Part shown: positions 585 through 35,500 of the stretch, piece by piece
How positions within the stretch are numbered: the stretch's first letter is position 1
Layout: each line of letters starts with the position of its first letter
Source of the DNA: Perkinsus olseni
Taxonomy: Eukaryota
DNA length: 44,430 nucleotides
Reading direction: 5' to 3'
NCBI GenBank assembly: GCA_013115125.1
Contig: JABANN010000274.1
Location: forward strand, 1-44,430
Notes under the pieces: model-generated
Database searches by the model: none
What the model was told of the DNA's origin: nothing
The model's input: the letters and a program-made list of their open reading frames with translations, nothing else
Position numbers and translations under genes: made by a program

Positions 585-656
585 CGCTTAACCCAAGGAT
601 AGAACCCGGGTCGCTGGAGAGGCGAGGCAGAACCTAAACCAACGAACCAATTCAGC
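585..656 (-). pseudogene. Degenerate full-length tRNA-like sequence (pseudo-tRNA)
   Basis: 72 nt. Acceptor GCTGAAT/GTTAAGC pairs 6/7, A-box-like TGGTTCGTTGG, T-arm CCGGG-TTCTATC-CTTGG. D and anticodon stems do not pair. Confidence 0.6.
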
Positions 657-704
657 ATTGCGACACATTTGGCTCTAGTACACCTCGTAAATTCCCTGAT
701 TGTG

Positions 705-875
705 CTCCTTAAGTTGCGATTTCAGGTGTACTTAAGTACGCCTTGAATTAAGGAGCTGCTTAAGGTTCTCCTAAACCTTGTGAAACAAGGTTAGTACTTC
801 TTGAGTTCACCTTAAGTAACTCCTTAAGTTGCTCCTAAACTTAAGGCGCCTTAATTCAAGTATCCTTGTGAAACA
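705..875. repeat. CTTAAG-rich mosaic repeat of short direct and inverted modules (related modules at ~95-175)
   Basis: CTTAAG at 708, 731, 759, 811, 823, 840 (also 124). Direct repeats CTCCTTAAGTTGC 705/820, CCTTGTGAAACA 776/864, AAGTACGCCTT 116/734. Inverted pair CTTGAATTAAGG 742-753 / CCTTAATTCAAG 849-860. Confidence 0.75.
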
Positions 876-1866
876 GGCCCGATGTGAATTAAAACGAGCG
901 TTCTACAAATTGGAGCCTTCTCAATGTGACGTTGCCACTAGAATCGTCCTGCCTCCGATCGAGTTCTTTCTAGGCGGGTTCCCGACAGAGACTACCGCGG
1001 CAGCGGGGGCTCACGCTGAGTGCTTAACGCACACTGGAGCCTGGTTTATCCACCAAGAGAGTGCAGTCTCGGACTGCCATGACTAAACCGCCCCTGCCTT
1101 CTAGGCGGCAGACCAGCCGTCACATCGGGAACTAGCCGATGATGAGACGAAAAGGAGACAAAGTCACCACACTGTAATCCCGCTAAAATATCGATTAGGT
1201 CCATGAGATGTGTAAACGAGATATATTTAGTTACCGGATTGCGACATTAGCTGACAAATCGCTGCTAGTCACCAGGCCGTCTACACCATTTCCTGCATGA
1301 GGAATTAAACCAACCCGCGCACAACCAGATGACCTAGGACGCGGGGAGAGTGCTTCGGTCTGGTAGGCCCTGGGATCACCACCCGTGATCTCATGGCTAT
1401 AAACATTGCTTCCAGCTCGAGCGCTGTGCTTCACTTCGTAACCAACTCACAGTGGCTGTCAAGGTTCTGGCTGTAGCCAGTTCAGCTGCCGCCCCTGCCT
1501 GTGGCAAGCCGTTTGACTCGACTCCTGGCTTAGGGGGTCCCAGATGCCTCACGGGTGACACCGCGCTGCTTCTGGAAATCAGAAGCCCGAACAGTGCAGC
1601 AAGCACTGTTTCGAAGGTGTTTCAGCAAGCCTGAAACACCTCCTCCCAGTCCTCCGCGGCTACGCTTTCAAGCGTTAGGTGACACGGAAGCATTATTCGT
1701 CGTCGAGGCGGCGACGTCGTTCGTGTCACCATCCCACTGCACGCATGCGCAAGCGCCAAAGTGTTGCAGCCGAGAGGGGAATGCTTGGGATAACGCCGCT
1801 CGGCACTGAGTATTGGCGTGTCTACAGTAAGCTATCATTACGAACCGATAGTATACTTATTGTCTG

Positions 1867-31339: not shown

Positions 31340-32155
31340 TTGTGCGCTCACACCGTCACAGTAGTATTGGTAAACTTGCGCACTACGGGCGAAAATTATT
31401 ATTTATCGGTTGTTGATGATAGTTTTCGAGCGAACCATGTGATTGTTGTGGTGAAGTATCAGGAGCTGTGGACTGCCGTTGTTATTCACCGCCAGTGTGA
31501 GGCCAGCTCTCGTCAGGTGACTGTCCAGGAAGCAGATCCAGATGGGCCGGGCAACAGCAGCAGCAGCAGCAGCCTCAACACCTCTATTTATCACTTGAAC
31601 CCTTTAGCTCTATTAAAGTCGGACTCCAACAGTACCTGCTCGAACGCTGTCCATTCCGAGCCTTTGCCCAGCCCGAAAGCGGCACATTCCCTTCACAAAC
31701 GGAAGGGTTGGCCGTCGCACATCGATCTTGAGGGGCTCTCGGAGCATCATCGCAATACGTTGCTGATGTCCATACCGCACGATCCGGAGACGGACGAGGT
31801 TTTGTCCTGCGGGAGCATCCCTCATTCCCTGGGCACCTGCAGACCATGCGTCTTCGCGCGGAACCTTGGGCGACCCTGTCAGTACGGGCAAGCGTGTCTG
31901 TATTGCCATTACCAGCACGAGACGAAGAAGAGAGTTAGGAAAACTAGAAAACAGCGGGCGGAGGCGAAATTGGCGGCGGCGCTCAGCAGTGATATCGAGA
32001 CCTTGGATGACGAGGATGATGGTGTTTCTCCTCGGCCGAGCGAAGCTGTGGTGGAGACGGTCAACCCCGAGGAAATCTATAAGGACTTGATGGACAGCGT
32101 GATGCTGGTCTGTGCTCAAAATTTGGGAATAAGGCGGCAGATGGAGAGCAGTTGA
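31340..32155 (+). CDS. CCCH (C3H1)-type zinc-finger protein of the dinoflagellate/perkinsid type (true start uncertain)
   Basis: SCGSIPHSLGTCRPCVFARNLGRPCQYGQACLYCHYQH followed by the basic tract KKRVRKTRKQR. Confidence 0.8.
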   Translation: MCAHTVTVVLVNLRTTGENYYLSVVDDSFRANHVIVVVKYQELWTAVVIHRQCEASSRQVTVQEADPDGPGNSSSSSSLNTSIYHLNPLALLKSDSNSTCSNAVHSEPLPSPKAAHSLHKRKGWPSHIDLEGLSEHHRNTLLMSIPHDPETDEVLSCGSIPHSLGTCRPCVFARNLGRPCQYGQACLYCHYQHETKKRVRKTRKQRAEAKLAAALSSDIETLDDEDDGVSPRPSEAVVETVNPEEIYKDLMDSVMLVCAQNLGIRRQMESS

Positions 32156-32566
32156 GGACGGCATGCTGCTCATACCACTCCTTTCGTAATTATTGCTTCT
32201 CTCTAGCTCTCGTTCATGATACGAGTAAATTGACTTTAACCATGCTACGTCGTTGACTGTCTATCGTGTTGCGCTCAGTTGCCGGGAAGGGCGCTAGGCG
32301 TCAGAAAAGTCCGGCTTCATCTGGGCTCCCAATCTACGCGCTGGAGGCGGAGTATCCGATCCTAGGTCGGAGGTCTCCACGATCGGGCGCTTCTACAATG
32401 ATAGACTCGGAAGTGATCTGAAGCTCGACGAGCCTTGCTGTTTGTGACAGGGCCTTGAAGCAGTGAGTCTGCATGCTACTCATGCTCACAGTGTGCATTG
32501 GGTCGGTCATAGCCCTACGCCTGGCCTAGCACGATCTATGATTCCTGCCAGCCACCTTACTAGTTC

Positions 32567-35500
32567 ATGTCATCTCGTTCTCGGTGTCACCTGGCCGCGC
32601 TCCTCAACCTAGAGGATGTCCACCTCGTCCTGGCGGAGTTCCTCACCTTCATGGACTGCCAGGCACTGGAGGGGACGTGTAGAGGGTGGAGGTGGGCGTT
32701 AAGAGGTCAGTGTTGGTGCTGCCACTTGACAGGCGCTTTATGTCGGCCCGGGCTTGCAGCGCCGGCGGGGAGACTGTCTCCGCGTTCGGGTCGTATTTGG
32801 TTTCGTTTCAGAAGACGCGTGGCAGCTGTGGCGGCAGGTGTTCCTCTACAATCATTGCTACCAGTTGGATACCACTCCTTCGCGATCTCTGGAAGGTGAG
32901 TGGGGCGCTCCAGGGTAGCACGGTCGATCACTCATGGTTGTGCGGTACGTAGAATGTAGACGATCTTCGCTCCGTCATTGCACGTGAAAAAGCTCCAATA
33001 TGAAATAAGGGCGGAGCGATACTCTCGGATGTCCCTATTGTATTGGTGACTACGAGAGAGTCTACAGGGAGATTTCTCACGCGACTTGCATCACTCGACC
33101 GTGGCGTTGAATCAGCGCCGCTGTGACGTGAGATCGACCATTCGCGCGCCGCTGATAGTAGATCACCCACCGCACGATTAGGACCATGCCGCAGTATACA
33201 GCGTCGGTGCTTGAGAAACGCTTTTCCACTGGGTTTGTTGAGCATACTTCTACCGGTCTTGCTGGCCTCCAGCGCCAACGACAGCCCGTGAAGAATTTTG
33301 CTTCGTACGCTACACCCTTCGACCATGGGAGCATACTGTAGTCCGTTATTCGCCGTGTCTCTCAGACGCAGGAGTGTGCGACACTAGACCCTTCGGACGG
33401 CAGGCCATCGGCTGGACACTGCGAGTTCAAGACCATCGTGATGACACTGTTTGGCGGCAGGGCGTAGTGGTGGAATACAGCCCCACACGGGACTGGTAAG
33501 TGGTGCCCTCTCCGATACGTCAGAGCCTCCATCATACCACTTTCAACCACTGCCTGCTACATTTGTGACCGAAATCGAATTCTCGCTCTCTCCGCTCCTC
33601 GGCACTGTTTTCGTGTGCGACTACCTGCTGATGTACCTGTATGATCTGCTCCACGCGCGGTACGCCGAGTCTGCCAGGGACGGCAGTTCCGGCCCTGAGT
33701 TGGCCCAAAGGCCGTCCGGGTGATTCAAAAAATGTCAAGTCCCTGTCAAAAATTCTTGACAGGGGGAAGTAGAGAGATAAATTGAGATTTAGGAAAGGTA
33801 TGGTATCAGGAGTTGGGGAAGCAAGCCACTGTACTGTGCTGATATACCACTCTTCATCCATGCAGTTATCGGATACTCTACTCGGACCCAGAAGTGCAGA
33901 CGATGACTCGACTGGAGTCACTACAAGCTGGCCTTGACATGCACGAACGCCTCGATGGCAACGAGGACGACGGGGAAGAGTTCCCACCGACATTCTGGGA
34001 GTCCGAGTCCCACACGAGCGAGTACCGCATCCGCCGCGGCGGGTATGTAAAGAATATGTCGCGCTTTGAGTGGCTGAAAGCGCTGGACGGCCAACAGCGG
34101 AGCGAAGCAGGACGGGAAGAAACAACGGCCGCTGGTGATCTGCTGGAGAGCGGCAATGGTCATCGGAAGGCTTTCGGTGGTGAACTGAGCTGGAAGGGAA
34201 TCGCGAGGCACTTGTCGGGCGAGGTGAGGGGAGGACGCGCTCTGCCGAACGCGGCTGACGCGTGGCTGTAGGTGCCGAACAACGCAGTGTTGACTTTGAG
34301 AGATCATGATGATGAGGTCCTCTACGCCGACTTCAGTCCGTGCGGAAGGTTCCTGGCCACCGCGAGCCGAGATGGGACATGTGAGAAAAATGGAAGCTGC
34401 CGGGATCGAACCTGATACCTTTCGCTGCTCCTCTTTTAGCCGGTATTTATGCCCTGTTCGACCCTCTAACCGACAGCCCCGAGGAAGTGGACTTCACCCG
34501 CACAGTATGCTACGACTTTCTTGATCTATCACAGTCGTCTCCCGGCCTACCACACGTGATGGTGGACTCATCCTCGTGGCGCTGGGGCCGGGATGGCAGC
34601 ATCGCTTCCCGCCTGCTGTGTAAAAGGCACTCGTCTGTTGTCGTCTCAGTCGGCGTCCTCAGGTCGTCTTCATTGTGGCTGGACGGTGCGTTCCCGAGGG
34701 AATTCTCATGAAGCTGTGCGAGAGAAGCTTTACCCTGGTCGAGTGACTTGGGCGCCCGATTCGACCTCTCTGCTGGTCGCGTCGAGTGGCCCGGTCTTCT
34801 GGATCGACATGCGAGCTCTCATTGCCGGTCGAGGGCCTCCTAGAGCGATCACTAGTATTGCGCAAGTAGTGCTGCTTTGCTTCGCTCCGCCGTCCACCCG
34901 ATTTTTTTCAGAGCCCCGGGGACGTCTACGGCGGTTTCCTGTTTTACCCTCCGGACGATTCCGCTGGCCTCAGTGTTGAAGATTTCGAGGGCCGAATTCC
35001 TCTCGAGGATCGGCTATGTGTTCTGTCAAGTAATCAGCCTAGAGAAGTACAGCCCAAGCTGTAGATCGTTTTGGCCACTTTCGATTCTCCTGTTCAATAG
35101 GCTGATGCTGACACTCAGAATCGTCTCTGTGAAATGCGGCCCTTGAATCCATTCTGAGATCCAGAGTTTATCACCCCCAACGTCTCCGCGCTGGCCTCTC
35201 AGCGTCGTACACTTCTCGTTGATTCACTCTTCGCTGGGATTCCTCAGGTAGCCGCATCATTCCTTTGCTCGATCAAGACACGGGGGTTGGCAGCCTTACT
35301 CAGCGATTCGAAATTCACGGTAAACCCGTGGAAACACCTTCGAGACCATCAGAAGGAACACGGTCGCTGCCGGCAGCTGTCTTCGATGTCAACCTGGGGC
35401 GCCAAGCTCTCATCAGGGCCATTTCGGGTAGGAGGATGGTGGCCCTTTCCTGTCTCGCCACTCTCACGCAGAAGTCATTTGCTCCGTCGGATTCTGTTGA

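Follow-up and report, generated by a model that had tools for sequence, protein, structure and literature searches.

Why should pieces that resemble the 3' end of a tRNA gene lie inside the introns of protein-coding genes? The question is raised by contig JABANN010000274.1 of Perkinsus olseni, analysed here from position 1 to 44,430; this whole stretch is called the window, and every count below comes from these 44 kb of Perkinsus DNA. It contains six intact copies of a short cassette in which a B-box, the part of a tRNA gene bound by the RNA polymerase III (Pol III) assembly factor TFIIIC, is followed at the distance found in tRNA by CA and a run of T. We tentatively suggest that these cassettes act as DNA-level binding sites of the TFIIIC type, and weigh this reading against tRNA-gene debris, mobile cassettes and two further possibilities.

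A B-box and a terminator at tRNA spacing

The pattern GGTTCRANYCC has eight matches in the whole window, against 0.48 expected, and none of 100 shuffles reaches eight. One match is the box of the true tRNA-Cys gene, leaving seven exact boxes outside tRNA. Five of these seven carry the 13-mer CAGGTTCGATCCC, which never occurs in 300 shuffles and tops the 13-mers of the window in an unbiased word count; its 11-mer core has a Markov expectation of 0.017-0.035. The excess of dispersed copies reported by the initial annotation, which counted about ten, is thus real. However, its copy at 585-609 resembles a chance match, those at 30898 and 19235 lack a tail and deviate from the box at one position, and three copies had been missed, namely 20083(-), 19524(-) and a partial one at 19408-19417(-).

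In six copies the box belongs to a two-part cassette that reads CA-GGTTCGATCCC, nine variable bases, and then CA followed by two to seven T. CATT stands exactly nine bases past the box in copies 12528(-), 25077(-), 25245(+), 27229(+), 27756(-) and 34402(-), so that the six copies for which exact tRNA spacing had been claimed do have it. The two-part match (box, nine bases, CATT) occurs six times in the window and in none of 300 shuffles; CATT has a frequency of 0.003 per position, yet 6 of 11 copies have it at the single correct position. In tRNA numbering the tail consists of C72 and A73 followed by a Pol III terminator. Cassettes measure 26-31 nt, of which about 18 bases are fixed. Their box agrees with the tRNA B-box/T-loop consensus, and the tail-bearing copies differ from each other at positions 57, 59 and 60, which the consensus leaves free, with an additional change at the last box position in 27229. 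A position weight matrix scores the six copies at 34-43 bits and everything else at 14 bits or less, a gap that is inflated by training on the same six copies and is not used as evidence. All five exact 13-mers (12528, 20083, 25077, 27756 and 34402) are minus-strand copies, irrespective of the strand that encodes the host gene, and the plus-strand copies are all variants; this bias may be due to chance (two-sided 1 in 16).

None of the cassettes is a tRNA gene. ARAGORN and Rfam recognise only the tRNA-Cys gene in the window and call no copy, and the Rfam tRNA model (RF00005), run at E-values up to 10 on the whole window, 24900-27900 and 6500-6950, gives no further match. The T-stem pairs at two to four of its five positions in 11 of 11 copies, two of these positions being fixed by the motif, which is the random level. 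For the acceptor strand the best upstream partner matches five or six of seven bases, as it does at 3000 random places, whereas both stems of the tRNA-Cys gene pair throughout (Table 1). Scores for an A-box 25-80 nt upstream, taken against the consensus, are at background (5-7 of 8), and there is no 5' half. Folding energies have z-scores from -1.5 to +1.1 in eight of eight folds, with no common shape. The failure of the T-stem and the missing 5' half, both pointed out in the initial annotation, thus hold.

The absent pairing rules out tRNA halves, split or permuted tRNA genes and tRNA-like processing signals. The idea of a primer-binding site or a target for tRNA fragments was likewise rejected, as the antisense copies lack a TGG to pair with CCA. 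A separate stretch at about 6715-6780(-) shows a D-loop/A-box-like word and, about 33 nt further on, AGTTCGAATCT; it is called by neither ARAGORN nor Rfam and probably represents a defunct tRNA gene or an element of tRNA origin. In the 45 nt that follow the true tRNA-Cys gene (43289-43333) there is no run of four T, whereas each solo cassette closes directly with T2-T7.

Host introns and block-wise conservation

All six intact cassettes are intronic, three in sense and three in antisense orientation to their host genes, in keeping with the earlier observation of both orientations. Support for the introns comes from spliced RNA contigs in two cases, from a public protein model in two, from a WD40 exon with an RNA-proven border in one and from frame continuity only in one. 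The host of the two RNA-proven introns is the plus-strand gene 23597-26829, for which the contigs of four runs (four studies, one declared RNA library) contain the identical 13 joints. Removal of the 13 introns creates one open frame of 500 codons that ends at 26608-26610; unspliced contigs cover 26473-26829, and an RNA contig carries a spliced-leader tail immediately before 23597. This gene is highly expressed and highly covered by contigs; it is also what sequencing runs sharing few words with the window (X2 and X7 among them) contain. Its first joint (23851 to 23895), given as AG..GC, has 3 nt of slack and becomes a non-canonical GC..AG intron on shifting by 2.

The second host gene, 26932-30470, may resemble CCDC61/VFL3, a likeness that Pfam does not support. 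Splicing out 27050-27409, 27510-27565 and 27731-27801 reproduces P0004, a public protein of 475 residues. In the third, the exon 34272-34380 encodes a WD40 repeat (2.3e-07) that is cut at position 35 of the 39 positions of the model. Pfam detects nothing but WD40 in the long frames and exons of the window. The 238-codon frame around 20083 has no homologue among longer or similar-length proteins, and the depth of RNA contigs is 0 across bins 19169-20502; the candidate introns at 19202 and 19477 would stand or fall with the coding status of this frame.

The initial annotation had placed six copies in introns of 54-80 nt. Four of these have support beyond open frames, namely those of 72 and 80 nt (RNA-proven), 71 nt (P0004) and 59 nt (WD40 exon), while those of 56 and 54 nt have frame continuity only. 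Its intron concentration holds for 6/6 intact cassettes. However, any non-coding insert would show the same: in a gene-dense genome whose coding sequence is unable to carry one, such a location is what is expected of it, and 27229 lies in an intron of 360 nt. Nor does the position next to the 5' splice site support any reading, because short introns offer no other free room, their last 20-25 bases being needed for the branch point and acceptor. This proximity was therefore discarded as a special feature; in the 360-nt intron the cassette sits mid-intron, away from the 5' splice site. The three antisense copies in short introns all stand at GTGAG followed by an A-run and TG, and their introns all end in TTAG.

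Fourteen short introns have support beyond open frames alone: the four with a cassette measure 59-80 nt (median 71.5) and the ten without one 41-61 nt (median 48; exact one-sided Mann-Whitney p = 0.002), a gap that roughly equals the length of a cassette. Cassettes occupy about half of the 56-nt and 59-nt introns and leave 29-30 nt outside, compared with 41 nt for the smallest intron seen.

Among the six cassettes pairwise identity averages 0.84 in the 13-mer block and 0.93 in CATTT, but 0.33 in the nine bases between the blocks and 0.25-0.32 in the flanks. A blastn comparison of the window with itself found no pair of copies, and alignment revealed no conservation outside the two blocks. The nine-base spacer has a GC content of 0.69, compared with 0.52 for introns, and is thus GC-rich as tRNA stems are. 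High identity of the blocks with low identity of spacer and flanks is the pattern of a binding site.

Binding site, debris or mobile cassette

The reading that we tentatively prefer, short of calling it probable, is that the cassettes represent DNA-level TFIIIC sites, composed of a B-box plus terminator, similar to the extra-TFIIIC (ETC) sites of yeast and maintained by selection. From the motif, its spacing and excess, the intronic location, the absent tRNA fold and 5' half and the block-wise conservation, all observed directly, we infer TFIIIC binding, selection and any downstream role, for example as a chromatin or transcription boundary or in the passage of RNA polymerase II (Pol II). A TFIIIC-type DNA site is the best fit because the box is identical to that of TFIIIC, the terminator stands at tRNA distance, there is no fold and both orientations occur; a protein other than TFIIIC but with its specificity would do just as well. 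The equal split into three sense and three antisense copies argues against a signal that is read in the pre-mRNA of the host. Solo B-boxes in yeast bind TFIIIC without Pol III, and binding is lost when the invariant C is changed (PMC4228148, PMC5391098).

Each module would correspond to the last 26-31 bases of a tRNA gene, that is, the T-loop, the 3' strand of the T-stem, the 3' strand of the acceptor stem, the discriminator A and oligo-T, kept at tRNA spacing without the partners required for folding. Selection would retain these modules for the binding of TFIIIC, making them the perkinsid counterpart of ETC sites. In either orientation they would occupy the scarce non-coding space of a gene-dense genome with short introns, here the middle of introns of 56-80 nt, one intron of 360 nt and, as a box only, a 3' untranslated region (UTR). 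Insertion of pieces that stem from tRNA genes is their probable origin, because the cassette-bearing introns are longer by about one cassette.

A number of points weigh against this interpretation. The looser consensus GWTCRANNC, with 40 matches, is not clearly enriched: 300 shuffles average 27.6 and reach up to 43. Matches with at most one mismatch to the full pattern number 21 against 10.7 expected, and the 13 with exactly one mismatch are barely enriched as a class. The signal therefore resides in the intact copies. No ETC site is known to us in which a CA-oligo-T tail is conserved at tRNA spacing, and such a tail points to an origin in tRNA genes, or to termination, more than to TFIIIC binding alone. 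With five copies in 2.7 kb (25077-27756), the density is far above that of the few ETC sites of yeast. Decayed copies are present, as turnover predicts, and the conserved C-A before the box is outside the B-box consensus. Likeness among copies points to copying, with four identical bases following the box in 12528 and 25245 and a 17-mer common to 27756 and 34402. Finally, the evidence base is 44 kb of one window.

The most serious contender, although an unlikely one, is that the cassettes are neutral, functionless debris of tRNA genes, pseudogenes or tRNA-derived retroposons in non-coding DNA, of which only the 3' end can still be recognised. Debris would account for the exact tRNA-like spacing, the tail in the form of a Pol III terminator, the GC-rich spacer, the decayed copies (19235, 19524, 19408 and 30898) and the additional length of the cassette introns, and the stretch at about 6715-6780(-) shows that such remains exist here. 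The pattern of conservation speaks against it. A single decaying family is excluded because 13 of 13 bases are kept in five copies while the next nine are random, a result that neutral decay from one source cannot yield. An origin from many tRNAs is disfavoured because the T-stems, which young copies should have retained in paired form, pair at the random level, and because different tRNAs would not have C50, A51 and the same loop letters in common. A young family from one master is disfavoured as well, the copies not being alike throughout. What is left, therefore, is either constraint on the two blocks in place or copying from varied sources that were themselves held to both blocks. In addition, a useless insert should be lost, whereas two introns have less than the 41-nt minimum outside their cassette.

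Quite improbable, in our judgement, is a mobile intron-associated cassette, similar to a short interspersed element (SINE) or an introner, that inserts into introns or creates them and keeps box and terminator for Pol III transcription of its source copy. The reduced tRNA-derived mobile element that the initial annotation had proposed beside a DNA-level function keeps some weight in this form: sub-families exist (12528 with 25245; 27756 with 34402 and 19524), cassette introns are about one cassette longer, the cassette fills about half of the 56-nt and 59-nt introns, the three antisense short-intron copies have their GTGAG setting and TTAG ends in common, and five copies are clustered. Yet nothing is shared beyond about 30 bases, whereas known introners and SINEs are alike over their whole length, and there is no A-box. 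No target-site duplication or terminal inverted repeat was seen by eye at seven intron borders, where old repeats could have decayed; convergent pairs such as 27229/27756 flank real exons, and the mid-intron position in the 360-nt intron takes away the argument from splice-site proximity, which is forced in short introns. The annotation's DNA-level proposal fares better, with motif and spacing conserved without RNA structure, both orientations, no A-box and block identities well above those of spacer and flanks. An inverted-repeat transposon or miniature inverted-repeat transposable element was rejected: the convergent pair 27229/27756 encloses two coding exons of the gene matching P0004, and the other copies are single.

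It is very unlikely that the cassettes constitute tiny Pol III units with short 3' ends like those of pre-tRNA, or a T-loop-like RNA read by tRNA-processing enzymes. The terminator directly after the discriminator position in 6/6 cassettes would suit such units, as would the lack of T4 after the only true tRNA gene of the window. However, there is no A-box 25-80 nt upstream, no conserved structure and no excess folding energy, and the putative transcripts would begin in unrelated exon or intron sequence; the RNA contigs are uninformative on small RNAs. Least credible of all is the site of some other sequence-specific protein whose tRNA likeness is coincidental, which the conserved C-A before the box, the loop letters fixed beyond the B-box consensus and further unrelated words that recur likewise in the window would favour, but which makes an unlikely coincidence of two blocks at the exact tRNA distance with C72, A73 and oligo-T.

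Yeast ETC sites are few and intergenic, and the 'chromosome-organising clamp' sites of fission yeast form a related comparison. In contrast to yeast ETC sites, Perkinsus has six intact cassettes in 44 kb, all of them intronic and with a conserved CA-oligo-T tail at tRNA spacing. The two are alike in that ETC sites are B-boxes without a surrounding tRNA, A-box or foldable RNA; these bind TFIIIC without TFIIIB or Pol III and influence neighbouring Pol II transcription (PMC4228148). B-box motifs outside tRNA genes have also been described in another gene-dense protist, Dictyostelium discoideum, whose solo B-box and A/B-box loci are proposed to be assembly sites for Pol III factors and where an isolated B-box is a weak target of TRE5-A, a retrotransposon that seeks tRNA genes. 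However, the Dictyostelium loci lie on the ribosomal DNA element and the targeted ones have an A-box at a tRNA-like distance, whereas the Perkinsus copies have no A-box and lie in introns of protein genes (PMC5391098).

Like the cassettes, tRNA-derived SINEs and TFIIIC-bound Alu elements are dispersed, often intronic and carry a Pol III B-box in either orientation. Some SINE copies are bound by TFIIIC and adopted by the host (10.1101/455733). SINE copies, however, share A-box, body and tail over 100-300 nt, while the Perkinsus copies share only about 18 fixed bases in 26-31 nt. The introners of Amoebophrya, a relative of Perkinsus, likewise fill short introns of unrelated genes with repeated sequence; introners are cited for Micromonas and Aureococcus as well. 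They are alike over their whole length with direct and inverted border repeats, whereas the Perkinsus introns share the cassette only, with no border repeats seen by eye (PMC7789003). In titles and abstracts (supplements excluded) of the Perkinsus literature on introns with tRNA-like motifs, introners and TFIIIC, no description of such cassettes was found, and a search for literature linking introners, tRNA-derived sequence and intron gain returned nothing. A metagenome scan gave no match to the antisense-intron pattern and one to the 17-mer plus tail (L001), which lacks a T-run or tRNA and is taken as chance.

Copies, neighbouring sequence and meaning

All copies and their introns are collected in Table 1. 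Four copies are altered at a fixed box position, and three of them (19235, 19524 and 30898) also lack the tail, which 27229 retains; the box-altered tailless copies and the intact ones look like dead and live classes. Copy 19524 looks like a decayed relative of 27756. An RNA-proven 48-nt intron (26099-26146, plus strand) contains an antisense box with one mismatch, 17 nt past GTGAG, that may be a decayed cassette in an intron of standard size.

Table 1. Cassettes, incomplete copies, their introns and the tRNA gene of the window
Feature	Position	Strand	Description
Intact cassette 12528	12514..12540	-	CA + GGTTCGATCCC + 9 nt + CATTT; sense to presumed minus-strand gene
Candidate intron of 12528	12494-12549		56 nt; open-frame continuity only; gene strand inferred from skew and open reading frames
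Intact cassette 25077	25062..25089	-	antisense to host; begins 7 nt past 5' splice site
Intron of 25077	25055-25126		72 nt; spliced contigs in 4/4 runs
Intact cassette 25245	25243..25268	+	variant box GGTTCAAATCC, tail CATT; sense to host
Intron of 25245	25229-25308		80 nt; spliced contigs in 4/4 runs
Cassette 27229	27227..27255	+	one box change (GGTTCGAATCG), tail CATTTTT; sense
Intron of 27229	27050-27409		360 nt; first intron, cassette mid-intron; splice candidates reproducing protein P0004
Intact cassette 27756	27738..27768	-	tail CA + T7; antisense; same gene as 27229
Intron of 27756	27731-27801		71 nt; removal reproduces P0004 over the junction; 53%-identical homologue P0006 also continuous there
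Intact cassette 34402	34386..34414	-	tail CA + T5; antisense; WD40-repeat gene
Candidate intron of 34402	34381-34439		59 nt; upstream exon 34272-34380 starts at RNA-proven intron 34224-34271; interrupts WD40 repeat
Box-only copy 26743	26741..26753	+	exact B-box GGTTCGATTCC, no CATT tail; 3' UTR of gene 23597-26829
Box-only copy 20083	20083..20095	-	exact 13-mer, no tail; within 238-codon open frame
Decayed copy 19524	19524..19536	-	CAGGGTCGATCCC, one mismatch, no tail; next bases like those of 27756
Decayed copy 19235	19233..19245	+	GGTTCTATCCC, one mismatch, no CATT tail
Candidate intron of 19235	19202-19255	-	54 nt; frame continuity only
Partial copy	19408..19417	-	first 10 bases of the 13-mer
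Weak copy 30898	30898..30908	+	one-mismatch box AGTTCGATTCC, no tail; stretch covered by unspliced contig
Copy 585	585..609	-	two mismatches to box, no tail; indistinguishable from chance
tRNA-Cys(GCA), positive control	43215..43288	+	T-stem 5/5, acceptor 7/7, A-box 8/8

Conserved short non-coding sites seem to be common in the window, because other words of 10-13 bases recur with unrelated flanks. CGGAGCGAAG is found six times on both strands (16959, 32965, 34098, 34880, 35635 and 35755), an exon containing one of the copies and an RNA-proven intron of 470 nt another. AGGAGTGGTA is found five times (9273, 24368, 25599, 32173 and 32870), often with CGAA in front, and two of its copies are in the RNA-proven long introns 24117-24628 and 25409-25671. 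Two 12-mers, GCACGCATGCGC (1739, 4530 and 18274) and GGGCGCGCGCTA (16143, 23445 and 29803), occur three times each and may be promoter or other control words.

Elsewhere in the window, the 524-codon frame 13324-14898(-) is 92-94% identical to Perkinsus olseni proteins. Around 22000-23600 both GC and AT skew change sign, with minus-strand long frames on the left side and plus-strand genes on the right side, an arrangement like a divergent switch between gene arrays. There are two near-perfect palindromes, 4426-4484 (59 nt, 98% match) and 4350-4380 (31 nt, 97%), the first of which has a sub-threshold Rfam match to mir-335 (42.6 bits against a gathering score of 64). Apart from a direct duplicate of 273 nt with 87% identity (2014-2283 and 4852-5124), the window contains no sizeable repeat.

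A bolder extension, which we consider rather doubtful, would have thousands of tRNA-gene tails in tiny introns forming a dense TFIIIC landing system that shapes chromatin or Pol II traffic within genes and supplies about half of the shortest introns. If the cassettes are bound and conserved, an alveolate would for the first time be seen to carry a dense set of extra-TFIIIC-type sites in its introns. The cassettes would then reveal what part of a tRNA gene still counts in the absence of the RNA, namely the box plus terminator at fixed spacing, would provide a handle on chromatin marking in a gene-dense, trans-splicing parasite genome and would bear on the padding or seeding of short introns by Pol III-related pieces. 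If they are instead young captures of tRNA-gene ends, they would indicate that the last third of a tRNA gene can be copied on its own, by a route not yet described.

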